From NCBI GenBank assembly GCA_900617105.1, contig UYFQ01000001.1:2480001-2544000 (forward strand): 64,000 nucleotides of DNA, read 5' to 3'. Positions 17,517-50,684 of the stretch are shown one piece after another. The translations under genes and the position numbers were made by a program. This DNA is from Hydrurus foetidus (taxonomy: Eukaryota). The notes beneath the pieces are model-generated. The model was given only the letters and a program-made list of their open reading frames with translations. It had not been told where the DNA came from and made no database searches. Within the stretch, counting starts at the first letter, position 1. Each line of letters starts with the position of its first letter.

Positions 17517-18470
17517 TTACGCGGAAGTGTTTAATTGACCAGACTGACCTGAAAATCCATGCGCCAATCCCTTAGACATAAAAATAGCGCGCTGCTTTCG
17601 TTCTCCAGAAAAAAGCAAAAAGTAAACTGCAAATTGGAAGAGGCGAAATAAAAAGTGCACTTTCCAAGTCAAACTCATTTGAGTTTCGCGCAACATTAGC
17701 AGGGTATTTCGGAACATGTAATAGTCTCGCAGCGGAGTGTGATACGTGACCTGCCTTGACCCGAAAAACCATATTGTCTTTGCAGCATCACCCAACGAAT
17801 GATGCAGCTTTGCATCTGGAACACCCAACAAAGTGTACCCGGCAGCCTTTGCGCGGAAGCACCACTCAGTATCGACATGATCGATAAAATATGATGAACG
17901 CATCATTCCAATGTGCCGAATTACATCCATTGGTATCAAGGTACCTGAGGCAATTAAGAAAGCTACATCAACATGTTTTGGCAAATCATTTGGGCGATTG
18001 GGAAACTTCCACCGTCGTGGCAGGCCTGCTTTTTCAATGACAAAAGAGGCCGTCCTCCCAGTACGCTTATCGATTGTCGCTGGACCAACAGCAGCTATCT
18101 TCTCAGATTTGCTTGAGCAGTCGGAATGCATAACAACCGCGAGTAATTCCCCCACCATTGTTGCGGAAGGCAAGCTATCTTGGTCTGATAAAAGCACGTA
18201 CCTTGCACCGAGAGTCATCGCACGCGCTATACCGGCGTTCTGTGCAGCCGCGATACCCGTGTTAACAGACATCTTCAGAACTTCAATCTCAAGGCTTTGA
18301 ATTTGATTAACGGTTGCCGATATATCTAAATACGAGGCGTTGTCCACCAAAATAGTGAAATTTACTTGGGGCTGGAGAGCCAGCAGCAAATCCCGCAATT
18401 CTTCTACGTCAGGATTGTAGGTTACAACAATCGCAATAACTAGTTTTGGGGAATTGATAACACCACTCAT
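17517..18470 (-). CDS. GT2 rhamnosyltransferase (RfbF-like)
   Basis: VVTYNP, VDNAS, NTGIAAAQN, DQDS, LIASG, FIDHVDTEWC. Confidence 0.88.
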   Translation of the reverse strand: MSGVINSPKLVIAIVVTYNPDVEELRDLLLALQPQVNFTILVDNASYLDISATVNQIQSLEIEVLKMSVNTGIAAAQNAGIARAMTLGARYVLLSDQDSLPSATMVGELLAVVMHSDCSSKSEKIAAVGPATIDKRTGRTASFVIEKAGLPRRWKFPNRPNDLPKHVDVAFLIASGTLIPMDVIRHIGMMRSSYFIDHVDTEWCFRAKAAGYTLLGVPDAKLHHSLGDAAKTIWFFGSRQVTYHTPLRDYYMFRNTLLMLRETQMSLTWKVHFLFRLFQFAVYFLLFSGERKQRAIFMSKGLAHGFSGQSGQLNTSA

Positions 18471-18667
18471 AATTTTTAACTGCAAGAGTATATACTTCCC
18501 ATAATGAATAAGATTTAAGCCGACTATTAAATTTGTGGGCACATGCCAGTCGGTTTACTCCAGCTGCGCTGTTAAAATGTGATTGGGGCAGTTTTAAAAA
18601 GCACCTGTCATCCACTTTCGCGCTAGACTCTGCACTGGATTAGTTTACGCAACTAAATTGAAAAAAC

Positions 18668-20578: not shown

Positions 20579-20733
20579 TGCATGAATTCCTAACTTGACT
20601 CAATTAATTTGTGGCCTAAGATTACAGTTTTTTCTTGGGGAACCGCCGAGTAATTTCCTTCGCAGTATCTTCGATAAATCTGACCATCGTGCTCAGCAAC
20701 GATTTGGTTGAGGTTGGAAACTTGACGCTTTAA

Positions 20734-21378
20734 TTAATTTAACTCATAATATTCTAATCGCTGCGAACCTAGTGCGGCATAATAATTTATCAATCTTTGC
20801 TTTTCGGGTGAATTGGCTTGCTGCCAATCCAGCAACTTACCATCTGGTGCATTGTTTGGTTGCAACACTTCAAGGCTATGCGAATGCACAAACTCTAGGT
20901 TATTCGGGTAACGCGCTTTCAGTTCTTCCCAAAATTTATACACCCCATAGCCGCGCTCACGAACATTGGCATCGCGAAGCTTGACGACTGCACCGGGAGC
21001 CAATTTTGGCAACCACGTTTCGAAAACATAACGAACTACTTCATAGGTGTGAAGCCCGTCAATGTGCAATAGCTCAATTGATTTATCCGAAAAATTGACC
21101 ACGGCATCATTAAAAATATCGCCGTTATGTTGACCGGTATGTTCATCGCCACACCACGTATCAACGGCATAACATTTAGTTGAAAGATCCGCTTCAACAA
21201 CTAACTGACAGAATGAGAAATATGAATACCCGTAATGACTGCCAAAATCGACAAATATTTTTGGTAAAGCGTCTTGGGCAATCCATGCGGCAAAGGGCAA
21301 ATGCCCCATCCATTCGCGCGGGGATTGCAGTAAATCAGGTGTAAACGCCGCAATATTTAATAATATATTTTGATTCAT
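20734..21378 (-). pseudogene. Methyltransf_24-like SAM methyltransferase, apparently degenerate
   Basis: Keeps AVDTW, LLHIDGLHTYE, WLPKL, but shows VDFGSH (usually VELGT), KLRDAN (usually LFHD) and a short segment between GDEH and LLHIDG; comparison from memory. Confidence 0.55.
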
Positions 21379-22733
21379 CTGGTGCTCAATCGAATGTTGT
21401 TCATTGGCACCCCTACTAACCCAGTGCTCACACTGCTGCTATGTGATTTCAGCAAGAGCGCATCGTGCATCCAATGGTGCTGAATATGCTCTTGCTGGTT
21501 ACCCTCCGCTAATGCAGCAGTGATGGAATAATCACCCATTGGCAAAATAGGCATCCTGAATTCAAATTCAGCATCAAATTTAGCGCCCGAAGAAATAATA
21601 AGTGGCGCTTGCTTAGAAAAATTGCAAGTATTTTCACCAAAGATTGGCTGTCCCAGTCGGTCATTGACAAGAAAACCTATAATCGGGCTAGGGATGTTGG
21701 CCGTGGCAAAGCAGGTGATTACAAGTCGCACCTTTTCACCACCCACTACCCATGCCAATGGCTTGCCCGTTTCATCAAGCAATTCAACTGAAGTAATGTT
21801 ACCGCCACCTTTTCCAAAACTCGCTGCGTCGGGTATAAAACTAAAAAGTTCAATATCGTTCCGATGGTCTGTTGTATTTATGAAGTCCTGCCGCATGTCT
21901 CGTGGCTGCTCTTCAGGCAACTTATCATCAATATTCTTTTCGCTGATGTTTGCTGCACTTTCGCCTTGTTGAGATTCGTACAATTCGGCAAGGTACATTT
22001 GTGTCACATCTTTGGGTTCACCTCGGTATTTTGAAATACCTTTATTTAACCAGATTGCGCTCTGACAAAGATTAATTACTGCACCCGTATCATGACTCAC
22101 AAAGAGTACTGTCCCCTTTTCCATGAACTTGCGCAAAAAACGCATGCACTTTTGGGTGAAAAATGCATCGCCTACGGACAATGCCTCGTCAACAACCAAA
22201 ATATCTGCATCCACATGCGCAAGAACGGCAAAGGCCAGTCGCACCATCATCCCACTTGAATAGGATTTAACTGGCTGCTCAATGAACTCGCCAATATCAG
22301 CAAAAGTTGCGATGGCATCAAAACGCGAATCAATCTCATTAGTGCTTAAACCCAGCACCGAAGCATTCATGTAAACATTTTCGCGCCCGGTAAACTCAGG
22401 GTTGAATCCTGAACCTAGTTCCAGCAGAGCGGCAACGCGGCCGTTGGTTTGTATGCTGCCGCTGGTGGGGGTAAGCGTACCGCAGATCATTTGCAGCAGG
22501 GTGGATTTGCCCGATCCATTGCGCCCGATGATGCCGACGGTTTCGCCTTTTTTGATCTCAAACGAAACGTCTTTGAGTGCCAAGAATTCACGGAAATATT
22601 GTTTTGGCGATTGCCCTGCCAGCCGCTGCAGGCGTGGGGCGATAAACTGCTTGAGCCGGTCAAGCGGGGTGTCATAAAGCTCGTAGCGCTTGCTAAGGTT
22701 CGTGACGCGGATGGCGAAATCGTTAGACGACAT
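21375..22733 (-). CDS. wzt: O-antigen ABC transporter ATPase with C-terminal carbohydrate-binding domain
   Basis: GRNGSGKST, YSSGMMVRLAFA, VVDEALSVGD, plus a C-terminal beta-rich extension. Confidence 0.93.
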   Translation of the reverse strand: MSSNDFAIRVTNLSKRYELYDTPLDRLKQFIAPRLQRLAGQSPKQYFREFLALKDVSFEIKKGETVGIIGRNGSGKSTLLQMICGTLTPTSGSIQTNGRVAALLELGSGFNPEFTGRENVYMNASVLGLSTNEIDSRFDAIATFADIGEFIEQPVKSYSSGMMVRLAFAVLAHVDADILVVDEALSVGDAFFTQKCMRFLRKFMEKGTVLFVSHDTGAVINLCQSAIWLNKGISKYRGEPKDVTQMYLAELYESQQGESAANISEKNIDDKLPEEQPRDMRQDFINTTDHRNDIELFSFIPDAASFGKGGGNITSVELLDETGKPLAWVVGGEKVRLVITCFATANIPSPIIGFLVNDRLGQPIFGENTCNFSKQAPLIISSGAKFDAEFEFRMPILPMGDYSITAALAEGNQQEHIQHHWMHDALLLKSHSSSVSTGLVGVPMNNIRLSTR

Positions 22734-23577
22734 CAGCAAACCCTTTGCGCGTTTTTTGGAACCAGGCGTAGCCTGCCCATGCAATGACAGTTGCCGCCAG
22801 GGTGTAAGTGCTCAAACCCAGCACGTTCGGCAAATGCCCCCAGATCAGCACTTCACGCGCTTGTTCGATGATGAAAGTAAGCGGGTTGGCCATGATGAAC
22901 GGGCGGAATCTTTCCGGCACGGCGGTGACTGGGTAAAACACCGGGGACAGAAACATCAACACGGTAGTAATAATGCCAATGGTTTGCCCGACATCGCGCA
23001 GGAATACGCCTAGGGATGCCAGCATCCACGCGAGACCCATGGTGAGGATGACCAGCGGCAGCAGTACCAAGGGGAAGAAAATCGCCGTCCAGTGCAGGTA
23101 GCCATTAAAGAGCGCAAAGGCGGCCAGCAGTACGCCAAGACTGATGAGGGTGTGAAAAAGCGCTGCACCCATGGCGATCACCGGCAGTATCTCAATCGGG
23201 AATACTACTTTTTTGACGTAATTGACGTTGGCAAGAATCAAGCCGGGCGCGCGGTTGAGTACCTCGCTGAACAGGCTGAGAACAATCATGCCGACGAACA
23301 GAACTACGGCGAATTGCGTTTTGCTATCGTCACCACCCATGCCACCCCAGCGCGATTTAAATATCTCGGAGAAGACGAAGGTGTACACCACCAGCATGAA
23401 CACGGGGGAGAAGAACGACCAAGCCAGTCCGAAGGCAGAGCCTTTGTAGCGACCCAGCACTTCGCGCTTGGTCATTTGCACGATGAGCTGGCGGTTGCGC
23501 CAAAGGCTTTTGCCCAGTGCCGCGAGGGATGTGGGTTGGGTGGCGTGGGGGTTGATCGCCGTTGACGCGTTAATCAT
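22723..23577 (-). CDS. wzm: O-antigen ABC transporter permease
   Basis: RYKGSAFGLAW, NYVKKVVFP, RDVGQ, SPVFYP, NPL. Confidence 0.93.
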   Translation of the reverse strand: MINASTAINPHATQPTSLAALGKSLWRNRQLIVQMTKREVLGRYKGSAFGLAWSFFSPVFMLVVYTFVFSEIFKSRWGGMGGDDSKTQFAVVLFVGMIVLSLFSEVLNRAPGLILANVNYVKKVVFPIEILPVIAMGAALFHTLISLGVLLAAFALFNGYLHWTAIFFPLVLLPLVILTMGLAWMLASLGVFLRDVGQTIGIITTVLMFLSPVFYPVTAVPERFRPFIMANPLTFIIEQAREVLIWGHLPNVLGLSTYTLAATVIAWAGYAWFQKTRKGFADVV

Positions 23578-24119
23578 GTGAAGTGTTCTGCTTTTGCCAA
23601 TGCATTGGCTTGTTGGTCTTTTGCGGACAAGGTAGGCTTGCCCTGAATGGGCCAATTGACGCCGATTGTGGGGTCGTCCCAGGCCAGGCTTCGCTCGTAC
23701 TGCGGGGCGTAGTAGTCGGTGGTTTTGTAGAGAAATTCGGCAGTGTCAGAAAGCACCACGAAGCCATGGGCAAAACCTTCGGGCACCCAGAGCTGGCGTT
23801 TGTTGTCTGCCGACAGAACTTCACCCACCCACTGGCCAAAAGTAGATGACGACTTGCGAATATCAACCGCTACGTCAAACACCTGTCCCTGCACCACCCG
23901 CACCAGCTTGCCCTGCGGCTGCTTAATTTGGTAGTGCAGGCCGCGCAGCACGTTTTTGACCGAGCGGGAATGGTTGTCCTGAACAAAATTTACTGACCGG
24001 CCAATTGCCGCTTCAAATTTGGACTGGTTAAAGCTCTCGAAGAAAAAGCCGCGTTCGTCACCAAACACCTGCGGCTCAAGCAAAACGACATCAGCAATGG
24101 CAAGTCGGGTGGCTTTCAT
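23574..24119 (-). CDS. rfbC: dTDP-4-dehydrorhamnose 3,5-epimerase
   Basis: DERGFFFESF, QDNHSRS, LRGLHYQ, GFAHGF. Confidence 0.97.
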   Translation of the reverse strand: MKATRLAIADVVLLEPQVFGDERGFFFESFNQSKFEAAIGRSVNFVQDNHSRSVKNVLRGLHYQIKQPQGKLVRVVQGQVFDVAVDIRKSSSTFGQWVGEVLSADNKRQLWVPEGFAHGFVVLSDTAEFLYKTTDYYAPQYERSLAWDDPTIGVNWPIQGKPTLSAKDQQANALAKAEHFT

Positions 24120-25003
24120 CAGAATACTTGCTCCTTCAACACTCGAAGCAAGTATTGCCCATAGCCATTTTTCGTCAGCGGTTGCGCCAGCTTTTCAAGC
24201 TGGCCGGCGTCGATCCACTTTTGCCGGTAGGCGATCTCTTCTGGGCATGAAACTTTCAGACCTTGACGGTTTTCAAGGGTGGCGATGAACTGGCTGGCAT
24301 CGAGCAGCGACTCGTGGGTGCCCGTGTCTAGCCAGGCGTAGCCCCTGCCCATGATTTCAACGCTGAGCTGACCGCGCTCAAGATACAGACGGTTCAGGTC
24401 GGTGATTTCGAGCTCGCCGCGGGGCGATGGCTTGAGGTTTTTAGCCAGGCCCACCACTTGGTCGTCATAAAAGTAAAGGCCAGTCACCGCGTAGTTTGAC
24501 TTTGGATGTGTTGGCTTTTCTTCAAGTGACAGCACTTTGCCGCTGCCGTCAAACTCGGCCACGCCGTAGCGTTCAGGGTCATGCACATGGTAGGCAAAAA
24601 CACTTGCGCCAACCGGCTGGCTCATGGCGCTGCCGAGCAAATTATGAAAATCATGGCCATAAAAAATATTGTCGCCCAGCACCAGCGCGCTGGGCGAATT
24701 GCCCAAAAACTGCTCGCCAATGATGAACGCTTGAGCCAGGCCGTCGGGGCTGGGCTGCACTGCGTACTGGATGCTTAAGCCCCACTGCGCGCCGTCACCC
24801 AGCAGTTGGGTAAAGCGCGGGGTGTCTTGCGGTGTGCTGATGATCAGGATGTCTTTGATTCCGGCCAGCATCAGCGTGCTGAGCGGGTAGTAAATCATGG
24901 GCTTGTCATACACAGGCAGCAGCTGCTTGCTGATGGCGAGGGTGGCCGGGTGCAACCGGCTGCCGGAGCCGCCTGCCAGGATGATGCCTTTGCGTTGGGT
25001 CAT
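24119..25003 (-). CDS. rfbA: Glucose-1-phosphate thymidylyltransferase
   Basis: [41 protein letters not shown]. Confidence 0.97.
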
Positions 25004-25040
25004 GGTTTTGAGAACAAGTTGGGTCGAAGTCGGGGGACCG

Positions 25041-25934
25041 TTAAAGCGTTTCAGCCAGCATTCGGTCAACGCCTGCTGCCCAGTGCGGCAAGATTAGGTT
25101 AAACCCTAAGTTTATCTTGTCGCAATTTAGCAAAGAGTTAAGCGGGCGCTGGGCGGCGGTTTTGTAGTCGCGCGTTGAAATTGCTTTGAGTTGTGCATCG
25201 TCCAGCTTGAGCGTTACGCGATGCGCGCGCGCGGCAGCAAAAATATGCTGCGCGTAACCGAACCAGGTAGTGCTGCCTGCTGCTGCCAGGTGGTAAACGC
25301 CGCTGGGGGCGGGGCTGCGCAGCGCATGCGCGGTAACGTCGGCGAGCAGGTCTGCACCGGTGGGCGCGCCGATTTGGTCGTTGATGACCGACAGCGTTTC
25401 GCGCTCTTGGGCCAGGCGCAGCATGGTTTTGGCAAAGTTGTTACCCCGTGCGGCGTACACCCAACTGGTGCGAAAGATGAAATGCTTGCAGCCGCTTGCT
25501 GTAATGCCTTGTTCGCCTGCGAGCTTGCTAGTGCCGTAAACACTGAGCGGCCTGGGTGTGTCGGTTTCTATCCAAGGTTTGCCGGGCTGGCCGTCAAACA
25601 CGTAGTCAGTAGAGTAGTGAACCAGCATCGCTCCTATTTTAGTAGCTGCTTGCGCAATAGCTGTAGGCGCTAGAGCATTAATTGTGTATGCATTTGTGCT
25701 GTCAGACTCGGCTTGGTCGACCGCAGTGTAAGCAGCCGCATTGACGATAACGTCAGGCTGCATCGCCAGTACAGTGCTGGCCAGAGCGTCGGGGTTTAAA
25801 AAATCGCCGCTGACTGGTACGCCGTTGTATTCAGTACTGTGCCGGTTCAGCGCAATCAACTCGCCCAGCGGTGCCAGGCTCCTTTGAAGTTCCCAGCCGA
25901 CCTGACCGCCTTTACCGAAAAGGAGAATTTTCAT
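25041..25934 (-). CDS. rfbD: dTDP-4-dehydrorhamnose reductase
   Basis: [30 protein letters not shown]. Confidence 0.95.
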
Positions 25935-25947
25935 AGGCGGCAGATTT

Positions 25948-26373
25948 TCAGTTCGGCTTGATGGTGGTGCGTTTACCGTCAAGCGGCTCTATCCACACTT
26001 CTTTTGCGCCAGCTTTCAGGTACAGGCCGGCCTTCATGTGCATTTCAGCCCAAGTGTTGCTCGGGGACATAATTTCTACGCACACCTCGGGGGCCTGCGG
26101 GTACGGGGTTTGCGTGCCGAATTGGGCGTAAAGCGCGTCAGATATCCAAGCCACATCTGCCACGCGCACGCCGTCATCGGTTTGAATACTGCATTCGGCA
26201 ATAACTACGCCGCCACGTTTTTTACTTAGTTCGCTAGATATTTCAACCTGCCGCCGTCCGTGCAGGTTAGACGCCGGACTCATTTCAACTTTGCCCCATT
26301 TGCTTAATTCGATTTTGAATGGCAAATTTTGTAAGTAGGGGTTGTCAATTACTTCCTGCCAGGTCATACCCAT
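25948..26373 (-). CDS. Uma2 (DUF820) family putative endonuclease
   Basis: MSPA..H, VADVAW, APEVCVEIMSPSN, YLKAGAKEVW. Confidence 0.85.
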   Translation of the reverse strand: MGMTWQEVIDNPYLQNLPFKIELSKWGKVEMSPASNLHGRRQVEISSELSKKRGGVVIAECSIQTDDGVRVADVAWISDALYAQFGTQTPYPQAPEVCVEIMSPSNTWAEMHMKAGLYLKAGAKEVWIEPLDGKRTTIKPN

Positions 26374-26406
26374 GTCAGTCTCCCGGTTGGTACTTAATGA
26401 AAATTA

Positions 26407-27468
26407 TCATACCTTGGCGTACTGTTTGCTGACCCACTCGCGGTAGCTGCCGCTTTGCACGTTGGCCACCCAATCGGAGTTAGCCAAGTACCAAGCCACT
26501 GTTTTGCGAATGCCGGTGGCGAAGGTTTCGCTGGGGCGCCAGCCTAGTTCACGCTCGATTTTGCTGGCGTCAATTGCGTAGCGCCTGTCGTGGCCGGGCC
26601 GGTCGGTGACATACGCAATCTGGCTGCTGTAGGGCTTGCCGTCTGCTCTGGGGCGCAGCTCGTCTAGCAACTTGCACACCGTGTGCACGATGTCGATGTT
26701 GGGCATTTCGTTCCAGCCGCCGACGTTGTAGACCTCCCCAACCTTGCCGCGCGCCAGCACTTCGCGTATGGCGCTGCAATGGTCTTTAACGTACAGCCAG
26801 TCGCGAATTTGCTGGCCATCGCCGTACACCGGTAGCGGCTTGCCTGCGAGCGCGTTGACGATCATCAGCGGAATCAACTTTTCAGGAAAGTGGTGCGGGC
26901 CATAGTTGTTGCTGCAGTTGGTGGTTAACACCGGCAAGCCGTAGGTGTGGTGGTACGAGCGCACCAAGTGGTCGCTGGCCGCTTTGCTGGCTGAATACGG
27001 GCTGTTGGGTGCGTAGGGGTGGGTTTCGGTAAAGGCGGCATCATGCGGGCCCAGCGAGCCATACACCTCGTCGGTAGAAACATGCAAAAACCGAAAGGCC
27101 GATTGGGTGGCAGGGTTTAAGCCGCCCCAATAGGCACGCGCCGCCTCTAGCAAATGAAAGGTGCCGACGATGTTAGTTTGAATAAAATCTTCAGGCCCAT
27201 GAATCGAGCGGTCAACATGCGATTCAGCTGCAAAATTAACCACAGCGCGCGGCTGGTAAGTAGCCAGCAGCTGCTTGACCAACGCTGCATCGCCGATGTC
27301 GCCGTTGACGAAAACATGGCGGCTGTCAGCTTGCAGCGTTACCAAATTTTCAAGATTGCCGGCGTAGGTCAGTTTGTCGAGGTTGACAACTGCTTCGCCT
27401 GACTGGGCAAGCCAGTCAAGCACAAAGTTTGCACCTATAAAACCAGCACCACCTGTAACTAAAAGCAT
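26407..27468 (-). CDS. rfbB: dTDP-glucose 4,6-dehydratase
   Basis: [40 protein letters not shown]. Confidence 0.97.
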
Positions 27469-27536
27469 TAAAACCCTTGGTATGCAGCGCCTGTTGGCTG
27501 CAACCAAATTATCCCATAGGCCCCATGCGGGGCAGA

Positions 27537-40705: not shown

Positions 40706-41245
40706 ATGCAGTACGCTACTCCGCCGCCTCAGCCCCACCAAGCTTTTGACCAGCGCACGCTGACTTCACTCGATAGTCAGCCGTACGGTTGCATCAAACT
40801 CGACAAAACCGGGCGAGTGCTGGAATTTAATATTGCCGCGTCAGCCGTGCTGGGTGTTCGCGCCAAGGACGCAATTGGCAAGCACTTTTTTACCGAAGTT
40901 GCCCGGTGTGCCGACAACCCCGAGTTTTACGGCCGATTTAAAACCGCCATGGCGGGCACTGGCGTGTTGAACAAGGTTATTGACCACCGGTTTGTTATGT
41001 CTGAAGCGGCGCAAGCGATGGGGGGTGTTTTATCGATTGACGTGCGGGTGCATATGTTTTCCAGCACTGACACGGCTGGCCTGCCGGTGGTGTGGGTGGT
41101 GACCCGCAAAAAAGCAGACGCTCTGACAACTGCTTTCAGCAACAGCCGGCCGCCAGACGCCAAACCGCCTGCGGCACCCGTTGCACAGCCAGCCCAGCGC
41201 CGACCGATTCAGAGCATTTCCTCTTCGTTTGACGTGCTGATGTGA
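40706..41245 (+). CDS. Photoactive yellow protein (PYP)-like PAS protein, divergent
   Basis: LD..PYG.I.LD..G, IGKHFFTEVARC, PEFYGRFK, VRVHM, WV match PYP signature segments; Pro-rich C-terminal tail. Confidence 0.85.
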   Translation: MQYATPPPQPHQAFDQRTLTSLDSQPYGCIKLDKTGRVLEFNIAASAVLGVRAKDAIGKHFFTEVARCADNPEFYGRFKTAMAGTGVLNKVIDHRFVMSEAAQAMGGVLSIDVRVHMFSSTDTAGLPVVWVVTRKKADALTTAFSNSRPPDAKPPAAPVAQPAQRRPIQSISSSFDVLM

Positions 41246-41358: not shown

Positions 41359-42324
41359 TCACACCACTCGACTTTCAGCTAACTTCAAGCGACTTCCCAA
41401 TTGGTCTTTTAGGTAATCAACGAACAATTGCACCTTGAGTGGCTTGCCCTTGCGCAAAGCCACCACGGTGTACACCGCCTTGGTTTCCTCCAGCTCTTGC
41501 ATAACTCTAACCAATTGACCGCTCGCTAAGTGGTCAGCGCAGTACTGGTACTTCAACTTGCCGATGTGTTCGCCACTCAGCACGGCCAGCAGCGCTACCT
41601 CTGGCTCGTTGGTGGGCAGCTTGGCTAAGGCGTAAACCATTTCGCCTACGGGGTTGGTCAGTAGAATTTGCTCATTTAGCTCGTAGTCATAACTGACAGC
41701 AGTAATAGGCAGTTGGGCCAGGGCTTGTATGGACGCGGGTGTGCCGTGCTTTTCTAAAAAGCCCGGCGTCGCCACAAACCCCATGCGACATTCACCCAAC
41801 TTGGACACCACCGCTCGCTCTTCCAGCGGCATTCCAATGCACACGCCCACATCAAAATCATTGTTAGCCATTGAAAAAGGTTTCGAGTCCAGTTTCAGCG
41901 ATATCTTTAAATGGGGGTGTAGCACGCCGAAAGAAATCACGAGGTCACCCACAAAACGGCGGCCAATGGCAGGCGGGCACAACACTCGCAACTGGCCTCG
42001 CACTTCCACACTGTAGCGGCTCATGGTTTGGCGCCCGGCTTCAAGCGCGGTCATGGCCTTGAGCACGAAGTGCAGGTAAGACTGCCCAGCTTCGGTCAAA
42101 CGCAAGCTGCGCGTGTCACGCTCAATCAGCCGCACACCGAGGCCTTCTTCAAGGTCATCCAACTTGCGGCTGACGGTGCTGGTGTTGACACCCAATGACC
42201 TCGCAGCCAGGGAGATGCTGCTTTTTTCAACAACAACCGAAAAGTACAGCGCGTGAATGGCGTCAAGTGGCGAGAAGACTTGTACGTCGCTGCCAGCGGG
42301 CTTGGTTTTGCGGGAAGACTGCAT
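41359..42324 (-). CDS. LysR-family regulator, copy 1 (CrgA/DmlR-like)
   Basis: AARSLGVNTSTVSR..LE..LGVRLIERDTRSLRLTEAG. Confidence 0.92.
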   Translation of the reverse strand: MQSSRKTKPAGSDVQVFSPLDAIHALYFSVVVEKSSISLAARSLGVNTSTVSRKLDDLEEGLGVRLIERDTRSLRLTEAGQSYLHFVLKAMTALEAGRQTMSRYSVEVRGQLRVLCPPAIGRRFVGDLVISFGVLHPHLKISLKLDSKPFSMANNDFDVGVCIGMPLEERAVVSKLGECRMGFVATPGFLEKHGTPASIQALAQLPITAVSYDYELNEQILLTNPVGEMVYALAKLPTNEPEVALLAVLSGEHIGKLKYQYCADHLASGQLVRVMQELEETKAVYTVVALRKGKPLKVQLFVDYLKDQLGSRLKLAESRVV

Positions 42325-42547
42325 GGGCGATTAGGTCAGCACAGCGTGCGGTTAAGAGCAGATTTATTCAAGATGAATGTGGCTATATCGTAGTAGGCTG
42401 ATATAAAAAGTTAGTTTCTAAGTAAGCTTTAAATTGAGGAGCGGACAAGGGTTTGAAGTTTATTGAATTGCTTACCGTGCCGTTACCGACAGCAAATTGC
42501 CCGCTGGTTGTCCGTGACGATTACATACACAAAATTTGAGGTGTTTT

Positions 42548-42564
42548 TGCAAAACAGTCGTGCA
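42548..42564. promoter_or_regulatory. Putative LysR operator
   Basis: TGCA-N9-TGCA (TGCAAAACAGTCGTGCA), conserved between the duplicated intergenic regions. Confidence 0.55.
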
Positions 42565-42697
42565 GAATGCTTATTTGAAGACAAAAGTGACAATTAGTAA
42601 CTTCAATCAATGGCTACATTTGACACTCGATCACTTTTGCGCCGTGGCTGGTATTTTTGCCATGCGCTGTGCAGGTCAAATCCGAGGCATTCTGTTA

Positions 42698-43195
42698 ATG
42701 ATTTTTGCAAAAACTAACCTGGGTCGCATTGCGGCCTTTGACCCCCAATCTGCCCTGCCTGCGCCGCAAAAAGCGCAGACTGACGCTCTAGCTGTTTCAG
42801 CCAATGACGACGTCGAACAACCTGCTCGCTTTCTCCAAATGTCATTGGTGTCAAATAATCGCGAAGGCACGATGACTGCATCGCTGGCGACATTGCTGCA
42901 GCCCGACAGCGCGCCAGAATTTGCTGCGTCTGGCTCTTCACACTCAGCCGAGTACCAAGACCGCCTGCAATCTGCCAAAGACAGCTTGATCGGTTTTGTA
43001 CTCGCGAACTTGCGGCAAGAGGCCAACGTGGTGCTGCAAGCGGTCAGTCAAATTACGCACAACGACCAGCTAAAAGCCACCATCATTGCGGTGCTGAGCA
43101 TGGCCAATCACGCCAGCCAGACCGACCCGAGTCAAACCCGCGCGTTAAATCAAGCCTTGCTGCAGTTGGCTGACGAAGAGTGGGAGCAAAAATAA
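42698..43195 (+). CDS. Hypothetical protein, internally deleted paralogue of 44664-45269
   Basis: MIFAKTNLGR..AFDPQS, TM.ASLA.LL.P, YQDR...AKDSL, QLKATI shared with the paralogue. Confidence 0.7.
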   Translation: MIFAKTNLGRIAAFDPQSALPAPQKAQTDALAVSANDDVEQPARFLQMSLVSNNREGTMTASLATLLQPDSAPEFAASGSSHSAEYQDRLQSAKDSLIGFVLANLRQEANVVLQAVSQITHNDQLKATIIAVLSMANHASQTDPSQTRALNQALLQLADEEWEQK

Positions 43196-43297
43196 GGGCT
43201 TAGGGCTTTTTTCAGGCAACGTTATTGCTGGATTAGCCCTTTAGCCTAGCAAATTCAGGTGCAAGCAGCTATTAATAGCATAGCTAATTGAAGGTCG

Positions 43298-44272
43298 TTA
43301 ACCCGCCCCAACCGCCAGATCTTCAAGCGCCTTCAAGTCGCTGCCCAAGTAGTTTTTTAAAAAATCAACAAACAGCTGCACCTTCAGCGGTTTGCCTTTT
43401 CGCAGCGCCACCACGGTGTAGATGGCTTTGGTGATTTCCAGCTCAGGCATGACCTTGACTAGCTGCCCGCTGGCCAGCTGGCTGGCGCAGTACCAGTACT
43501 TCATGCGGCCAATGTACTCACCGCTTAGCACGGCGCGCAGCGCTACCTCTGTGTCGTTGGTGGGCAGCTTGGTAACCGCATAGGCGATTTCACCTTTAGC
43601 ATTGGCCAGCACCACTTGTTCATGCAGATGGTAGTCGTAGCCGACTTCGGTGATCGGCAGTTTGGCCAGCGCGTAAATACTGTCGGGGGTGCCGTACTTT
43701 TTCAAAAAATCGGGGGTGGCCACAAAGCCCAGGCGTAACTCACCCAGCTTGGACACCACTGCGCGGTCTTCTACCGGCATACCCAGGCAGATGGCTACGT
43801 CAAAGTCGGTGTCGGCCAGCGCAAAGGGTTTGGAGTCCAGCTTTAACGACACCTGCAAATGCGGGTGCAGCACGCCAAAAGCAACCACCAGGTCGGCCAC
43901 AAACTGCCGTCCAATGGCGGGCGGGCACAACACCCGCAACTGGCCGCGCACTTCCACGCTGTAGCGGCTCATGGTTTGGCGCCCAGACTCTAAAGCGCCG
44001 ATTGCCTTGAGCACGTAGTGCAAATACGACTCGCCGGCCTCAGTCAGGCGCAGATTGCGGGTGTTGCGCTCAAGCAAGCGCACGCCGAGGTTGGTTTCCA
44101 GCTCATCAAGGTGACGACTAACGGTGCTGGCGTTCACGCCCAGTGATTGCGCCGCCCGGGTAATGCTGTTTTTCTCGGCAACCACTGAAAAATGCAAAGC
44201 GCGCGTTGCATCCAGCGGCGAAAAAGATTGCAGTTCGCTACCGCTGGGCTTGGGTTTACGTAGGGGGAGCAT
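43298..44272 (-). CDS. LysR-family regulator, copy 2
   Basis: Collinear paralogue of copy 1 (identical MSRYSVEVRGQLRVLCPPAIGR and YTVVALRKGKPLKVQLFVD). Confidence 0.92.
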   Translation of the reverse strand: MLPLRKPKPSGSELQSFSPLDATRALHFSVVAEKNSITRAAQSLGVNASTVSRHLDELETNLGVRLLERNTRNLRLTEAGESYLHYVLKAIGALESGRQTMSRYSVEVRGQLRVLCPPAIGRQFVADLVVAFGVLHPHLQVSLKLDSKPFALADTDFDVAICLGMPVEDRAVVSKLGELRLGFVATPDFLKKYGTPDSIYALAKLPITEVGYDYHLHEQVVLANAKGEIAYAVTKLPTNDTEVALRAVLSGEYIGRMKYWYCASQLASGQLVKVMPELEITKAIYTVVALRKGKPLKVQLFVDFLKNYLGSDLKALEDLAVGAG

Positions 44273-44503
44273 GAGGCAATAAAAATAACAAAACACAAAA
44301 CTGGCGACCGTTCCAGAAGCACTGCACTGCCGCTTGAACGTCGTTCTTCTAAACGCAAAACTCTGACCGTCCGACTCTGTTCGCGCTGCACAAAATAACT
44401 GCACACCAAAAGAGGAAAATCGCATAAAACCAGTGATCTTGGAGACACACTAAATAGCAAAGTTCAATTAGACCAACAAGACACTGGCATACGCGGCATC
44501 ATC

Positions 44504-44520
44504 TGCAAAACAGTGTTGCA
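44504..44520. promoter_or_regulatory. Putative LysR operator
   Basis: TGCAAAACAGTGTTGCA. Confidence 0.55.
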
Positions 44521-44663
44521 AGCTTTCAGATTGCCAGCTGAAGTAAGCACCAGTAACATCAAATGAATGATGCAAATGCAGCACTGGTAACGATGGCAAG
44601 CTGACTGTGATTCATACTTTTTAGCCCATGCTTACAGGCGCGCAGTACCAAAGAACTTACTCA

Positions 44664-45269
44664 ATGATTTTTGCTAAGACCAACCTCGGCCGCATGCTGG
44701 CCTTTGACCCACAATCCAACTTGTCACGCCCCGAAAAAGCCCTGTTGCGGCTGATTGACGGTAAAACCCGCTTGAGCACATTAACCAGCACGATGGACCC
44801 TGCGGATTGCTCCATTCAGCTGATCGAAGCGCTGCTTGATAAAGAGCTGATTCAGCTGGCCAAAGCAGAGCCTGAATTGGTTGGCGCGTCGGTAAAAGAA
44901 GCTAGCTCAGAGCCCAGCAGGCCGCGCCATCTGGCGCTGGTGTTGCCGCACTATGACCAAACCATGCCGGCATCATTGGCCGCGCTGCTCGAGCCCGAGT
45001 CAATGGCTGATTTCAGTGCGACTGCACCGCATTCGTTTGATTACCAAGACCGCATGGATACCGCCAAAGACAGCCTGGCTACGTTCGTGCTAACTTACTT
45101 GCCAGACGACGCCGCGCTGATGCTGCAGGAAGTCAATCAAATTTCCAACATTGAGCAGCTCAAAGCCACCATTGTTACGGTGCTGAACATGGCCAAGCAG
45201 GCCAGCGAAGTTGATGCGGACCAAACCCAGGCATTGAGTCAAACGTTGTATCAACTGTGTGAAGAGTAG
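44664..45269 (+). CDS. Hypothetical protein with KT..G..L....LL.LIDG N-terminal domain (possible winged helix)
   Basis: Clean ORF; paralogue upstream; fold assignment is inference. Confidence 0.75.
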   Translation: MIFAKTNLGRMLAFDPQSNLSRPEKALLRLIDGKTRLSTLTSTMDPADCSIQLIEALLDKELIQLAKAEPELVGASVKEASSEPSRPRHLALVLPHYDQTMPASLAALLEPESMADFSATAPHSFDYQDRMDTAKDSLATFVLTYLPDDAALMLQEVNQISNIEQLKATIVTVLNMAKQASEVDADQTQALSQTLYQLCEE

Positions 45270-45419: not shown

Positions 45420-46187
45420 TCAGTGCGCCCAGCGCTGCTGCGCAATCTCCAGCAGCCCGTCAAAAATCAGGCTTTCTACCAGCTCCACCTCGATCGACAT
45501 GCTGGGCGCCATCTTCCAGCCTGCGCCGCCGGTCATGATGCAAATCGGCGCCTGGCCGCAGCGCTGAGCCAGGTTGTCTGCCATGCGCTGCACGGCCCCG
45601 GCAATGGCGAAGGTACCGCCGCTGGTCAACGCGTCGCTAGTATTGGTGGGGAAGTCTTGCACCTCGCCAGTGGGCACGTGCAGGCCTGCGGTGCCAGACT
45701 CCAGTGCGCGCAGCATGATGCCGTGGCCCGGCAAAATAATGCCGCCTAAAAACCGGCCGGTCTCGTCAATGGCTTCCACCGTAACGGCTGTGCCCACCAT
45801 GACCACAATGCAAGGCTTGGCCGCACCACTTGCAAGTACGCGGTGGCGTGCACCAATCATGGCTACCCAGCGGTCAGCACCCAGGCGCGCCGGAAAGTCG
45901 TAGCCATTGACCACGCCCGCCTCAGCGGCGCCAGGCACTACCCAGCGGGGCACGGCTTCCCACAAATCAAGCTGCTCGACCACGCGGCGCCGAATGGCGT
46001 CACCGGCCACGATGCAGCCCAAAATATGCTGCGGCGCGGCCAGCTCGCGCCACTCGCCCTCGGCCAGCTTGTCGATGTTTTCTAAAAACACCGCGCCTTG
46101 CGCCAGCAGCACCGCGCCGCGGCTGGGCGATGCGTACTGCGCCCATTTCAGGCGGGTGTTGCCAACATCAAGCGCTAGGAAAGTCAT
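45420..46187 (-). CDS. coaX: Type III pantothenate kinase
   Basis: [32 protein letters not shown]. Confidence 0.93.
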
Positions 46188-46241: not shown

Positions 46242-46910
46242 TCAGATGAGTCCGAACCAGCATGCGCGCTGTATGGCGGCTAATTTGTTGTCAACCTTGA
46301 GCCGACTCATAGCGTTCGCCAGGTGAAAGTTGACCGTTCGCTCGCTGCAAAAAAGATGCTCGCCACTTTCCCGGGCGGTCAGGCCTTTAAACGCCAGTTG
46401 CAAGCACTCCAGCTCACGCGGGCTCAATGGGTTACGCGCCTCAGCCAGTGCACGCTTGAGCAGCGGCCAAATGTTAAGCGCCGACCAGGCCAGTAGCGCA
46501 GCTTCACTGCGGTCAACCCACTGGCGCAGACTGAACAAATAGCATTCAAACGCCCGGCCCACGGCCAAAGGAAACGCAATGCGCACCACACTTTGGTAGC
46601 CATGCGCAAGCCACAACCTGCGCCAACGGCTCATGTTTTCAAATGCGGTTTTTGAAATGTCTTGCCACGCCACCAAGGGTGCGTCTGAGTCGCGCCAGGG
46701 TGCGCCAAAGTCGCGGCTCTCAGCCAGGGCCTCCGCCGCATCCAGCAAGCGTGGCGGGTGCAGCGCCAGCACCAGCCGGTCCTCTTGCCCGCCAAAGGGG
46801 TCAGGGCCGAGAACCATCAGGGCCTCTACCGAAAATTCACGCAAACCGCAAAGCCAGTCGTTGACCACAGCGTCAGCATTCACACTGTCAAAGTTAGCAG
46901 GTAGTTGCAT
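46242..46910 (-). CDS. LuxR-family regulator with a divergent autoinducer-binding-like domain (LuxR solo)
   Basis: QS-type HTH LSPRELECL...G.T..E...SERTVNFHLANAM.RL; N-terminus keeps P..W and HG but lacks the W/Y/DP AHL-binding residues. Confidence 0.85.
   Translation of the reverse strand: MQLPANFDSVNADAVVNDWLCGLREFSVEALMVLGPDPFGGQEDRLVLALHPPRLLDAAEALAESRDFGAPWRDSDAPLVAWQDISKTAFENMSRWRRLWLAHGYQSVVRIAFPLAVGRAFECYLFSLRQWVDRSEAALLAWSALNIWPLLKRALAEARNPLSPRELECLQLAFKGLTARESGEHLFCSERTVNFHLANAMSRLKVDNKLAAIQRACWFGLI
46883..46902 (+). promoter_or_regulatory. lux-box-like site upstream of the sensor kinase, inside the luxR 5' end
   Basis: CACTGTCAAAGTTAGCAGGT = NN-CTG-N10-CAG-GT. Confidence 0.55.
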
Positions 46911-46945
46911 CGGTTTTGATTAAAAAGAACAAGGACAATGGGCAA

Positions 46946-48316
46946 ATGGGAAATCAAAAAACAACGAGCCGCTTACTTTGGATCCGCAGGATCGAGGCAT
47001 CTAAATTGCTTACAGCAACTTCAAAATTTCGGTTTGGCGTGAAACCCAAGCTCCAATGGTTGCGGGAAGAAGTTGTCAATGCGCCGTTTGAACCTATTTT
47101 GCATCCTTCGTCACGGAGACTGTGGTGGCTGGGCTTGTCCATTTTTGCGGGCAATGCCGTGTTCGCATGGATTTGGTCGGTCTGGCTGCCGCAGCCTTAT
47201 GAAAATTTGGCATTACGGTTCATCGCGAGCGCTTTGGGCTTGGCTTTGATGGTGCCCAAAATCAATCATGATCCCGACAGCCTTTTGGCCCAGCGCGTTT
47301 TCAGCATCGTGTTCTGGCTGGAGCTGCCGGTATTTTTCACCTGGATGTATCTTTGCAATAGCGCCAGTCCGGTGTGGCTGGCTTCGACAGCCTCGATGCT
47401 GTTGATTTACTACCTGGTAACCGACTGGCGGTTGGCCTCGCTTGGCACGATCACTGGATTCCTTGTGTCGTTGATCGCGTTCGCGCTAGCGGGACCCACG
47501 GCAGCGCCTTTTCAAGACGGGCAAATCGCTGTCCACGCAGTCGTGTTCGCGTTTGTCTGGTTCAGCGCACTGGTTCTTAATCTTTCTTCAGCAAATTTGC
47601 GACGCACCCATCTGTCGCACACGCTTGCAACCATTGGCATCATGGCCCATGAATTACGCACACCCTTGTCGACCGCAGCGCTTCTTGGGGATGCCATGCA
47701 GATGGAAGTTGCGCGCTGGCCAAGTAGTCCGCTCGCGCCGCAAATAGAAAAACTTGCCGTTCGACTGCACCGATTGGTGCGTAACATGAACCATCAGATT
47801 GACACGCAAATTACCAACGCAAAACTTCGGGAACTGCCGCGCCCCACGGAACTGGTTTCAGCTACTCGTTTGGTTGCAGATGCAGTCGCCAATTATCCAT
47901 ACGCTTGCAGCCGTCAAGAGCGCTGCGTGCGGGTTGTTAACCACGATGAGTTCAATTTCAGGTCGTGCTCGGTGCAATTCTCGCAGGTGCTGGACAACTT
48001 GATTAAAAACGCGTTGCACTCGCTGATGGCTGCTGATTCCAGTTACGCCCCCGGGGCATTGCGTATAGAAATACGCGCACATAAAAACGACAAAAACTAC
48101 GGGACGATAATTGTTGAAGATGATGGTATGGGCATCAAGCCTGAAGTACTGCTGCAAATTTTCAAACCCTTCTTTTCAAGTAATAAAGACACCGGGCATG
48201 GGCTGGGTTTGGCGTTTTGCCAACAGGTGGTGCGCAGTGCGGGTGGCAGCATTAGTGTGAAATCCAAGTTTGCGGTCGGGGCAACCTTCGTGATTGTGCT
48301 GCCAATCGCAAAATAA
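46946..48316 (+). CDS. cqsS: CqsS/LqsS-type alpha-hydroxyketone sensor histidine kinase (no receiver domain)
   Basis: About six TM helices with QPYENLALR, LPVFFTWM, WLAS; GIMAHELRTPL, DNLIKNA, DDGMGI, GHGLGLAFC; start uncertain. Confidence 0.85.
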   Translation: MGNQKTTSRLLWIRRIEASKLLTATSKFRFGVKPKLQWLREEVVNAPFEPILHPSSRRLWWLGLSIFAGNAVFAWIWSVWLPQPYENLALRFIASALGLALMVPKINHDPDSLLAQRVFSIVFWLELPVFFTWMYLCNSASPVWLASTASMLLIYYLVTDWRLASLGTITGFLVSLIAFALAGPTAAPFQDGQIAVHAVVFAFVWFSALVLNLSSANLRRTHLSHTLATIGIMAHELRTPLSTAALLGDAMQMEVARWPSSPLAPQIEKLAVRLHRLVRNMNHQIDTQITNAKLRELPRPTELVSATRLVADAVANYPYACSRQERCVRVVNHDEFNFRSCSVQFSQVLDNLIKNALHSLMAADSSYAPGALRIEIRAHKNDKNYGTIIVEDDGMGIKPEVLLQIFKPFFSSNKDTGHGLGLAFCQQVVRSAGGSISVKSKFAVGATFVIVLPIAK

Positions 48317-48359
48317 CCTTCGAGCACAACGCGAACAACCAACATCAACAGCAAAGCCC

Positions 48360-49346
48360 ATGACTTTCCCGCTCTACCGCCGTCCCGCCGCTGTCGTTTT
48401 TCTGGATGACGATCTTGACTATCTTGAGATGTTGGCCAACGTCATGCCGATGGAGTGGTTTGTCCGCCTGATGATTCGGCCAATTGCCTGCATTGAAATG
48501 CTCGTAGCTGAAATTGCATCGGCGGAGCTAGACATGTGGAAACAGCAAGAAATCATCAACCACTGGCGAGACGGCAGCGCGTTGATTCCGCAGATCCTTG
48601 CTTACTGGCGAGACGACGGGACATTGCGGTTCTCGTTGGCTCGGGTGTTAGTGGTGGACTACTCGATGCCGGCCATGAGTGGCCTGAGGGTTCTCAGTGA
48701 GCTGACGCAGTGGCCAGGATTACGTATCTTGTTAACAGGCCGGGCCGACGAGCAGCTTGCTGTGTCTGCATTTAACAGAGGCTCCATCCAGCAGTTCATA
48801 CCCAAGCAATCACCGGAAATCCGGCTGCGCCTGACTGCTGCCATCCAGCACCTGCTGCACAAACCAGACGCACGACATGAGCAAACCTGGCGCTCCACCT
48901 TGTCACGCGAGCAAAGCGCGCTGCTGAGTGACCCGACCATCGCGGGGTCGCTTGCGAAACTCGCCGCCGAGCAAAATTGGGTAGAGCATGTCGTTATCGG
49001 CGCCCCCTTTGGCGTGCTTGCCCTTGACACAGCCGCCAAGGTGGCTTGGCTTCAGCTGGAGCCTACTGACCGGCTAATTGAACTGGCGGAAATTGCAGAG
49101 TCTCAAGGCTGGAGTGCTGAGAACGTGCAGGATGTTCGCGCCGGTAAAAAACTCATTGATGCTGAGCTCCAGCTCGCCATTGGCAGCGCACAAAAACCAA
49201 GGCTGAAGGAAGCCTTCGTGATGGGCTCGGAAACAGCGCAGATATACGCAGCGCTGTTTGAGGTCAATCAAACGTTTTGCCCAAAACCCTCTGACAGCCA
49301 CCAAGACTTCATCACCAGCCAAAGTCACCGGCACATACAAGGTTAA
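48360..49346 (+). CDS. LqsR/JqsR-like response regulator with no recognisable DNA-binding domain
   Basis: Split receiver: VVFLDDD, long insert, VVDYSMPAMSG, LLTG, FIPK; between sensor and synthase. Confidence 0.82.
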   Translation: MTFPLYRRPAAVVFLDDDLDYLEMLANVMPMEWFVRLMIRPIACIEMLVAEIASAELDMWKQQEIINHWRDGSALIPQILAYWRDDGTLRFSLARVLVVDYSMPAMSGLRVLSELTQWPGLRILLTGRADEQLAVSAFNRGSIQQFIPKQSPEIRLRLTAAIQHLLHKPDARHEQTWRSTLSREQSALLSDPTIAGSLAKLAAEQNWVEHVVIGAPFGVLALDTAAKVAWLQLEPTDRLIELAEIAESQGWSAENVQDVRAGKKLIDAELQLAIGSAQKPRLKEAFVMGSETAQIYAALFEVNQTFCPKPSDSHQDFITSQSHRHIQG

Positions 49347-50596
49347 TTCAAACCTTGCCCCGCCCGGGCTCGTCGCGCGATGGGCCAGTCCCACGGTTTG
49401 ACGATTTGCGCAACTTCGCGGGCTGCTGCTTCTACGTGGTCTAGTTCCGAGTCCATCAAACCTGCATTCAGTGTCATGCGCATCATGGCCCGCTTGCTGC
49501 TGGTGGCCGGTGCGCAAAACATAGCCGAGAATACGTTACGCTCCTCAAGCCTGTCGCGCAGCACCATCGTGTCTGGTTCCGTACCAGATTCCAGCGCAAT
49601 AATTTGCTGGCTGCCCTGGTGAATTGGGTAGCCCAAATCTTCAAGGCTTTGGCGCAGTCTCAGGGTGTGAGAGTGCAGTCGCGTGCGTGCCATATCGCTA
49701 TTTTTAATGACTTCAAGAGTTGCCGTCAGCCCAGCAATTTCATGAGGCAACAAACTGGAGCTAAAGATATTAGGAAAACTCGTACAAAAAATGTAATGCC
49801 GAAGATGGGCTGGCGCACTAAAAAATCCGGCTCGCCCTGCGAATGCCTTTGCCAAACTAGCGGTGATGAAATGCACCCGATCGGAAACACCAAGCTCAGC
49901 ACACAGGCCTGACCCTTGAGGCCCGTGCGTTCCCAAAGAGTGTGACTCATCCACCAGAATCATGCACTCGCCTTGCTCAGCTACGTTCACCATTTCAACC
50001 AGCGGACACAACGCGCCTGTGGTGCTGTAGACCGAATCAACCACTACCAAACCTGGCCCGTGCTTGGCAATCATGCGAGCCAAATGGGTCGGATCGTTAT
50101 GTCGAAATGGGATAGAGGGCGCACGCGCTGCGTGCGCACCCTCCCAGAGTGAGGCATGCGCAAGGGTGTCAAGATAAACAGGGGTGCTCGCATCGGCGAT
50201 AGCTTGCAGTAAGCCGACGTTTGCCGTGTATCCGGATTGGCAGATAAATCCGTCGTCTTTGCTGATCCACGCTGCTAAAGCCATCTCTAGCGCGCGCGTG
50301 GGATGTTGATTGAGATGAAACACGCCGGACTGCACAACAAATTCATTTGCTTTGAGCAACGCATCCACTTGCGCCTGCACGATGCTCGGATGGCCCGTGA
50401 TGCCGAGATAGTCATTGCCATCCAGTCGAATTGCGTTGGGCCCCGGCACAACACCGTGCAGGACGAATTTACCGCCCCATTGCTTGTCCCAGCGTGGTGT
50501 GAAATCCCGCGCGATTCTGCTGGAAAGGCGTTTACCCAGTGGCGGATTCGCAAACGGCTTGGTGTCGAGAGATGATTTTTGGTCCAGTGCTTGCAT
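49343..50596 (-). CDS. cqsA: CAI-1/LAI-1-type autoinducer synthase (PLP-dependent AOS family)
   Basis: NDYL, QSGVF, QSGYTANVGLLQ, AHASLWEG, VDSVYSTTG, DESHSLG, SLAKAFAGRAG, FCAPAT; next to cqsS-like kinase. Confidence 0.92.
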   Translation of the reverse strand: MQALDQKSSLDTKPFANPPLGKRLSSRIARDFTPRWDKQWGGKFVLHGVVPGPNAIRLDGNDYLGITGHPSIVQAQVDALLKANEFVVQSGVFHLNQHPTRALEMALAAWISKDDGFICQSGYTANVGLLQAIADASTPVYLDTLAHASLWEGAHAARAPSIPFRHNDPTHLARMIAKHGPGLVVVDSVYSTTGALCPLVEMVNVAEQGECMILVDESHSLGTHGPQGSGLCAELGVSDRVHFITASLAKAFAGRAGFFSAPAHLRHYIFCTSFPNIFSSSLLPHEIAGLTATLEVIKNSDMARTRLHSHTLRLRQSLEDLGYPIHQGSQQIIALESGTEPDTMVLRDRLEERNVFSAMFCAPATSSKRAMMRMTLNAGLMDSELDHVEAAAREVAQIVKPWDWPIARRARAGQGLN

Positions 50597-50664
50597 GATG
50601 AGATTTCTCAGTTGGTTGATCGAATCCCCATTCAATGCGCACACACACCTCGACACGTGCCACC

Positions 50665-50684
50665 CCCTGTCAGAACTGACAGTG
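50665..50684 (-). promoter_or_regulatory. lux-box-like palindrome upstream of cqsA
   Basis: CCCTGTCAGAACTGACAGTG: CTGTCAG-AA-CTGACAG inverted repeat, CTG-N10-CAG, centre about 78 bp before the ATG. Confidence 0.7.

Follow-up and report, generated by a model that had tools for sequence, protein, structure and literature searches.

How a response regulator without a DNA-binding domain reaches the genes it controls is the question raised by a four-gene cluster in a 64,000-nucleotide stretch of DNA, hereafter the window (positions 2,480,001 to 2,544,000 of contig UYFQ01000001.1, assembly GCA_900617105.1, listed under Hydrurus foetidus). Judged from its sequence, the locus is an alpha-hydroxyketone quorum-sensing cluster, with a synthase, a sensor kinase, an LqsR-type response regulator and a dedicated LuxR-type protein, and is of the Polaromonas type, kept across one Burkholderiales family. 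In the text consulted of two papers, lqs/cqs clusters are recorded in Polaromonas and other Betaproteobacteria, and the way in which LqsR-type regulators alter gene expression is treated as an open question (PMC3376566, PMC10653808). We propose a circuit in which the sensor kinase controls the LqsR-like protein, the LqsR-like protein acts as an anti-activator of LuxR, and LuxR acts on lux-type boxes; comparative evidence and a complex prediction lead us to give the full circuit a probability of about 0.5. Two of its parts are held more firmly: LuxR and the boxes very likely form the transcriptional arm of the cluster, as a preliminary description of the locus had supposed and as linkage and the co-occurrence of boxes with LuxR now suggest, and the regulator probably acts on LuxR by direct contact, to go by structure prediction.

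An alpha-hydroxyketone cluster with its own LuxR-type protein

The gene luxR (46242..46910, minus strand) encodes a LuxR-type regulator of 222 residues, with a divergent N-terminal domain of the autoinducer-binding fold and a C-terminal GerE helix-turn-helix. On its other side, on the plus strand, stand a CqsS/LqsS-like membrane sensor histidine kinase (46916..48316, first in-frame ATG at 46946) and an LqsR-family response regulator of 328 residues (open reading frame (ORF) 48294..49346, likely start 48360), followed on the minus strand by cqsA, which encodes a CqsA/LqsA-type alpha-hydroxyketone synthase (ORF 49343..50656, likely start 50596). This order, with its strands, is that of the preliminary description and is borne out by the ORFs of the window. 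The closest named relatives are Polaromonas genomes, with a LuxR identity of 99-100%.

The synthase passes the NCBIfam model NF005526 (553 bits against a cut-off of 428) and matches Vibrio cholerae CqsA (3HQT, E 1e-93). The regulator, which lacks a DNA-binding domain, matches Legionella pneumophila LqsR (6SY9) both in sequence (E 8e-16) and in fold (template-modelling score 0.69, E 1e-19); its receiver residues Asp100, Thr126 and Lys149 are invariant, and Asp100 is present in 84 of 84 aligned regulators. For the sensor, whose position in the cluster is conserved, we found HisKA and HATPase_c domains, a HELRTP motif and a hydrophobic N-terminal half; the sensor domain itself was set beside neither CqsS nor LqsS. 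As the preliminary description had stated, the window appears to hold no luxI: no member of an autoinducer-synthase family was found among 50 of the 65 ORFs of at least 140 codons outside 38.8-57.2 kb and 10 ORFs inside that interval, in a scan that did pick up a LuxI in another locus (L287). Nor was luxI found in five related genomes, in a search that ran without a positive control.

Two conserved palindromes lie upstream of the synthase and sensor genes

The cluster carries two 20-nucleotide palindromes of the class CCTGTCA-N4-TGACAGG. Box 1 (50665..50684, minus strand) is non-coding and lies upstream of cqsA; box 2 (46883..46902, plus strand) lies upstream of cqsS, the sensor gene, and within codons 3-10 of luxR. 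Both 20-mers of the preliminary description are exact. One point that it had missed is that box 2 is not intergenic and occupies nucleotides 9-28 of the luxR reading frame, a frame whose start is confirmed by orthologues that begin at the same codon. The boxes are of the lux/cep kind, palindromes of about 20 bp with CTG-N10-CAG before a putative promoter (cep box consensus as given in the consulted part of PMC1766932). The looser joint pattern of the preliminary description has two matches in the window, a number reached in 6 of 100 shuffles at one mismatch and thus weak evidence. A matrix built from the cqsA boxes of relatives only was far more selective, ranking the two window sites first and second in the 64 kb (29.5 and 14.4 bits, next 5.1). 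Another candidate, the third-best window site at 55140 (16.5 bits), falls within the ORF of a transporter and was not considered further.

The boxes are conserved in orthologous promoters, the check that the preliminary description had named beforehand. Box 1 was present in all 64 genome loci that include the cqsA upstream region and in 46 of 46 metagenome loci, as a conserved block of 20 nucleotides between unconserved flanks. Box 2 scored at least 10 bits in all 80 genome and all 80 metagenome loci, and the cqsA-box matrix placed it first or second in 74 of 81 loci. Metagenome loci were left out of matrix building and may include the same species as the genome loci. Putative -10 hexamers follow both boxes at near-constant distances: TT(C/G)AAT 28-30 nucleotides after box 1 in 64 of 64 loci (29 in 58 of them; 50630..50635, minus strand, in the window), for a candidate cqsA promoter, and nACAAT 29-32 nucleotides after box 2 in 66 of 81 (31 in 54; 46934..46939, plus strand), for a candidate cqsS-lqsR promoter. 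A leaderless cqsS mRNA is not claimed, as the cqsS start codons were scattered in a survey of 19 loci. In four loci (L035, L072, L193, L332), cqsA is lost and an intact box remains at its former place.

Because box 2 is coding, we checked synonymous sites in 80 luxR genes. Pro4 is encoded by CCT in 78 of 79 genes (11% elsewhere in the gene), Phe7 by TTT in 78 of 78, Asp8 by GAC in 80 of 80, and Ser9 by AGY only; codons equally fixed number 8 among the 128 conserved degenerate codons of luxR, and 3 of the 8 fall in box 2. Could the boxes be bound by some other factor, with box 2 a by-product of the LuxR N-terminal peptide? It does lie near the 5' end of a coding sequence, where codon use is atypical, and the same motif serves canonical LuxR proteins that respond to acyl-homoserine lactones (AHLs). 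The synonymous sites that match the palindrome are nevertheless fixed while the peptide varies in divergent loci, the boxes vanish with luxR, and no PF03472-type LuxR was found in any of five box-bearing genomes searched, which together make this explanation scarcely credible. We consider it likely, from these comparisons, that the LuxR binds the CCTGTCA-N4-TGACAGG boxes.

The boxes track LuxR, and LuxR stays beside the regulator

We then surveyed 301 genomes from the same Burkholderiales family, in which LuxR was present in 41, cqsA in 35 and both in 31, on one contig and within about 4 kb in 30 of the 31. The exact 18-bp palindrome occurred in 30 of the 41 LuxR genomes and in 22 of the 260 others, and at least two such sites in 20 of 41 against 1 of 260, counts in which kin are not independent, which inflates any test. 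The lone exception, with at least two sites and without this LuxR, has a canonical luxR-luxI pair in which luxI carries a box of the same class and the LuxR has a nearly identical recognition helix, which links the helix to the box. Four cqsA genomes lack this LuxR, two with a synthase of another clade and two with one of this clade (luxR lost in G837 and in pieces in G1047); none of the four has a box at the locus, and three that were searched genome-wide had no site. Thus, sequence comparison supports the view that the LuxR belongs to the cluster and that the boxes are conserved and track it.

Where the sequence reaches 4.2 kb or more upstream of luxR, the regulator gene was present in all 68 genome loci (synthase and sensor also in 64, the sensor only in two, neither in two) and in all 46 metagenome loci. 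Ten LuxR genomes gave no cqsA match, one owing to a contig break and one to a frameshifted cqsA; the eight that truly lack cqsA all retain the regulator next to luxR. The regulator thus persists in loci from which the synthase and sensor have been lost, and the unit that stays together consists of regulator, LuxR and box. In Ramlibacter sp. WS9 (L077:812-4740), cqsA and cqsS are lost at the locus and the remaining regulator-luxR pair adjoins both a hybrid kinase weakly like the sensor and a gene for an iron-containing redox enzyme (PF14518) with a 29-bit box before it; this enzyme may be a further signal synthase attached to the same output module.

These data also bear on whether LuxR might answer a separate cue, as an upstream activator of the cluster and not the output of the phosphorelay. 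The box evidence speaks only for likely control of the cluster by LuxR, and a box 2 that drives any gene opposite luxR could by itself keep the regulator adjacent. Such an arrangement fits poorly with retention of the regulator in 8 of 8 synthase losses, 7 of which also lack the sensor, with its retention in tandem orientation as well (L188, L191), and with the direct regulator-LuxR contact predicted below, and we regard it as very unlikely.

A receptor fold without a recognizable receptor family

The preliminary description had left two roles for LuxR, a direct receptor or a partner of the LqsR-like protein. The protein scores 58 bits for GerE and has an AlphaFold model with a predicted local distance difference test (pLDDT) of 86.9. 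In the helix-turn-helix, the invariants defined for LuxR receptors in the consulted part of PMC4338825 are all present, as E166, L170 and G176 (E178, L182 and G188 in TraR), invariant in 56 of 56 sequences. The N-terminal domain has the LuxR ligand-binding fold, matching the domains of CepR2, LasR and QscR; the best folds were QscR (Z 13.0, root-mean-square deviation 8.3, 205 residues aligned) and the CepR2 ligand domain (Z 10.7, deviation 3.6, 146 aligned), and the nearest clusters by atlas features were those of PF03472 (0.94). No PF03472 match was found in the protein at E 0.1, or in 22 distant relatives at E 0.01. Sequence and profile alignments joined it to AHL receptors in the helix-turn-helix only, and its global alignments with them lost register. 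For the TraR pocket, a comparison by eye of predicted secondary structure tentatively pairs D70, W85 and G113 with D67, W82 and G104, and TraR W57, Y61 and P71 seem to have no counterpart. The N-terminal domain thus seems to have diverged beyond sequence alignment and may still have a role for a ligand. Ten distant relatives of the LuxR (P0151, P0158, P0163, P0167, P0171, P0190, P0203, P0206, P0208, P0211), of 317-354 residues, have an extra N-terminal domain of about 120-140 residues without a Pfam match.

A LuxR that senses the hydroxyketone or its amino precursor directly in the cytoplasm, parallel to the kinase, would account for the conserved domain with its autoinducer-binding fold. In other Burkholderiales families, moreover, another LuxR lies near cqsA at 5 of 21 loci, with a PF03472 match in four. 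Yet in loci with enough flank the LuxR is kept without cqsA and never without the regulator, it has no PF03472 match, and its predicted partner is the regulator, and a receptor role is in our judgement quite unlikely. Of the two roles left by the preliminary description, a partnership with the LqsR-like protein is therefore favoured, on co-retention and complex prediction. The five loci with an unrelated LuxR (L116, L118, L120, L123, L124) are of note in themselves: in three, the LuxR is a solo of canonical appearance that diverges from cqsA, and lux-box-like sites (11-14 bits) stand ahead of cqsA, and L124 has two such sites (21.9 and 16.0 bits). From these sequences, LuxR proteins may have been wired to cqsA more than once.

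The regulator is predicted to cap the recognition helix

The complex of regulator and LuxR was predicted with a score of 0.61, compared with 0.24 for the best of three controls; the mark applied is reached by 51 of 78 solved complexes and by 2 of 108 mismatched pairs. Prediction runs shared at least 93% of contacts, with a partner pLDDT of at least 82. Contacts were predicted between regulator residues 71-74 and 238-275 and LuxR residues 163, 165 and 188-208. On the regulator, the predicted LuxR-binding surface is formed largely by two acidic helices (residues 238-275; 49071..49184, plus strand), which correspond to output helices at 236-248 and 268-274 in the structure model; on LuxR, it is the recognition helix region (residues 188-208, helix 190-203; 46287..46349, minus strand). 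The two patches differ in charge, being acidic on the regulator (mean net charge -3.4 over 56 rows) and basic on LuxR. Glu269 is present in 59 of 61 regulators of the clade, and the patch differs in other LqsR clades. Covariation over 56 paired rows placed 2 of 25 predicted pairs above the 95th percentile, with most LuxR contact columns invariant, and there was no solved complex of a regulator-LuxR pair among the structure matches found.

Because the contacts sit mostly on the recognition helix, the predicted geometry would block DNA binding. Burial of a DNA-binding helix is what marks an anti-activator, and here it is seen in the predicted complex only (0.61 against 0.24). The regulator might also bind LuxR with the other sign, either as a co-activator or chaperone, as in PqsE-RhlR, or with the unphosphorylated form as the inhibitor, so that the boxes would be on at low density. 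Co-retention of luxR and regulator gives no sign, LuxR proteins with activating partners are known (PMC13043044, in the part consulted), and the conserved N-terminal domain of LuxR could be the true docking site. On the other side, all confident predicted contacts are on the helix-turn-helix, and the strong box before the synthase gene suits the usual positive loop. We therefore consider a partnership of the other sign unlikely.

Distal boxes suggest a small and variable regulon

Candidate targets were read in the genomes of relatives and not in the window's own. A 17-bp pattern found distal sites in 15 of 15 LuxR genomes searched and none in reversed controls; a looser 16-bp pattern was dropped, being no higher than its reversed control in three of five genomes, and the 17- and 18-bp patterns were used. 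At 34 distal loci inspected, the neighbours of boxes included genes for phosphonate-binding-protein-like proteins, for secretion and transport, and for a hydrolase, a sigma factor and resolvases; 11 of 32 ORFs scanned beside distal boxes had no family, some of them shadow ORFs. From these sites the regulon looks small and variable.

Several distal sites deserve mention. Homologous genes for phosphonate-binding-protein-like proteins (PF12974) have a box before them in three Polaromonas genomes (L144:2564, L149:2506, L219:1500), a conserved distal target. In two genomes boxes stand just before resolvase genes (L145:2531, L280:1500), and one of these also has a phage-like gene next to it, a hint that mobile DNA may be under density control. 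Neighbours at seven further loci (L207, L262, L214, L222, L237, L276, L218) comprise a two-partner secretion transporter (in two genomes), an ATP-binding cassette (ABC) exporter, a GH5 hydrolase, a TonB receptor, a ketoacyl synthase and an extracytoplasmic function-type sigma factor; in several of these a TTG hexamer abuts the box.

A proposed phosphorylation-switched anti-activator circuit

In the circuit that we propose, the kinase would phosphorylate the regulator at low density, and the phosphorylated regulator would hold LuxR off DNA. As signal rises, the regulator would lose its phosphate and release LuxR. This order is carried over from the signal and phosphorylation behaviour of the Legionella proteins, where LAI-1 inhibits sensor autophosphorylation and LqsR dimerises on phosphorylation (PMC5289986, in the part consulted); which phosphorylation state binds LuxR is an assumption. 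Free LuxR, which would need no small ligand, would activate cqsA in a positive feedback, would activate cqsS-lqsR, and would switch on a small, species-specific distal set, with many genes for secretion, transport and exported enzymes. On box 2, it would also obstruct its own gene. The preliminary description had proposed positive feedback on both synthase and sensor, which is not supported as written: box 2 lies in luxR and could also block luxR transcription, and with the regulator as an anti-activator, induction of cqsS-lqsR would supply more brake and so damp the loop, not amplify it.

Several observations weigh against this circuit. The LuxR N-terminal domain is well conserved, which the model does not explain and which would suit the binding of a ligand or of another partner. 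With 30 contacts, the predicted interface is small; it was folded without alignments, an acidic patch on a basic helix is a generic attraction, and 7 of 44 blindly drawn neighbour pairs passed the same complex test. Conservation of the regulator's predicted contact residues (0.67) barely exceeds that of its remaining C-terminal domain (0.61), and two clade members without an intact luxR retain the acidic residues. The boxes lie about 29-31 nucleotides before the putative -10, farther than a box that abuts the -35. One genome with luxR and cqsA (G826) has no box before cqsA (best 0.3 bits), another has weak boxes (G910; 8.7 and 8.9 bits), and a third has none near luxR (G947). Finally, the sensor was not at the locus in seven of the eight luxR genomes that truly lack cqsA, in which sensor genes elsewhere were not searched.

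Relation to known systems

Comparison is with published accounts as far as their text was consulted. Like the window, the Lqs system of L. pneumophila (LqsA, LqsS/LqsT, LqsR) combines a synthase, a simple sensor kinase and an LqsR-family regulator in one cluster (PMC3376566, PMC5289986), but in that text no linked transcription factor or operator is described. Legionella LqsR has a degenerate diguanylate-cyclase-like fold with no activity detected, and its output is called unknown (PMC10653808); the regulators of the window's clade have output helices (WLQLE, DxEL) that are specific to this clade and absent from other LqsR clades. The Jqs system of Janthinobacterium and Duganella likewise has a jqsA-jqsS-jqsR cluster with a palindrome before the synthase and target genes (PMC5080296). 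We compared the window boxes with its JAI-1 motif, TTGA-N6/7-TCAA, and the sequences differ; the text consulted neither names a protein that binds this motif nor reports a LuxR in the cluster (PMC5080296, PMC3566124). Betaproteobacterial AHL systems of the LuxI/LuxR type (CepR) share with the window a two-domain fold, a recognition helix and a CTG-N10-CAG box before the synthase gene (PMC1766932). Unlike these, the window has CqsA in place of LuxI, a LuxR N-terminal domain that fails PF03472, and a kinase and response regulator in the loop.

For the proposed mechanism, the nearest parallel is RapF-ComA of Bacillus subtilis, in which an activator of the LuxR/NarL type has its DNA-binding helix buried by a protein under quorum-sensing control (PMC3246441), as is predicted here. 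RapF has an unrelated fold and is switched by peptide, whereas the predicted anti-activator of the window is a two-component response regulator that would be switched by phosphorylation; the analogy is one of function only. In Ralstonia, the Phc system has a kinase and response regulators, without a described DNA-binding role, that control a separate transcription factor, PhcA (PMC11298618), and PhcX, which is orthologous to LqsR, has been rewired to a different system (PMC10653808); PhcA is of the LysR type and the signal is a hydroxy fatty acid ester. A LuxR partner of PhcX was looked for in the text searched of PMC10653808, which has no mention of luxR.

TraM-TraR is an anti-activation pair of the same kind as RapF-ComA.

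As the preliminary description had suspected, the wiring found here appears to have no described precedent among open-access sources: our search returned no description of a LuxR in an lqs/cqs-type cluster, in sources seen in part, though published cluster maps, the LqsR structure paper, the Cupriavidus Lqs study and supplements could show one. The portions consulted of PMC8023197 and PMC9021309 likewise hold nothing on LuxR-lqs/cqs wiring. This wiring of known parts is real and conserved, and apparently it is undescribed.

Neighbouring genes in the window

Downstream of luxR lies its usual neighbour coaX (45420..46187, minus strand), a type III pantothenate kinase gene with a Pfam Pan_kinase match. 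It adjoins luxR in most loci and is not beside it in several, and is probably a landmark outside the circuit. Farther off, 41359-45269 is a tandem duplicate pair in which two LysR genes (41359-42324 and 43298-44425) each diverge from a related hypothetical gene without a Pfam match (42536-43195 and 44628-45269), and a PAS-domain gene lies at 40706-41245. A surface polysaccharide cluster spans 15511-27507, with rml genes, an ABC exporter and methyltransferases and an inserted Uma2-family gene (25951-26373).

Implications

More tentatively than the circuit itself, we suggest that the LqsR-family regulators of this clade mimic DNA, are switched by phosphorylation and sit over the recognition helix of a LuxR that has no ligand, and that regulator, LuxR and box form a portable output module plugging different kinases and signal synthases into a lux-box regulon. 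For the question of LqsR output, which thereby becomes directly testable, the cluster offers a named transcription factor and its operator, along with target genes, natural losses and contacts proposed residue by residue, in environmental bacteria that can be cultured. If the proposal is true, it would answer for one clade how LqsR-type regulators reach genes, and it would present a LuxR-fold protein run by a two-component relay and not by a bound autoinducer, joining the two main Gram-negative quorum-sensing architectures. Many bacteria of fresh water and soil share the signalling cluster. It suggests that density-dependent control operates in Polaromonas, Hydrogenophaga and Ramlibacter.

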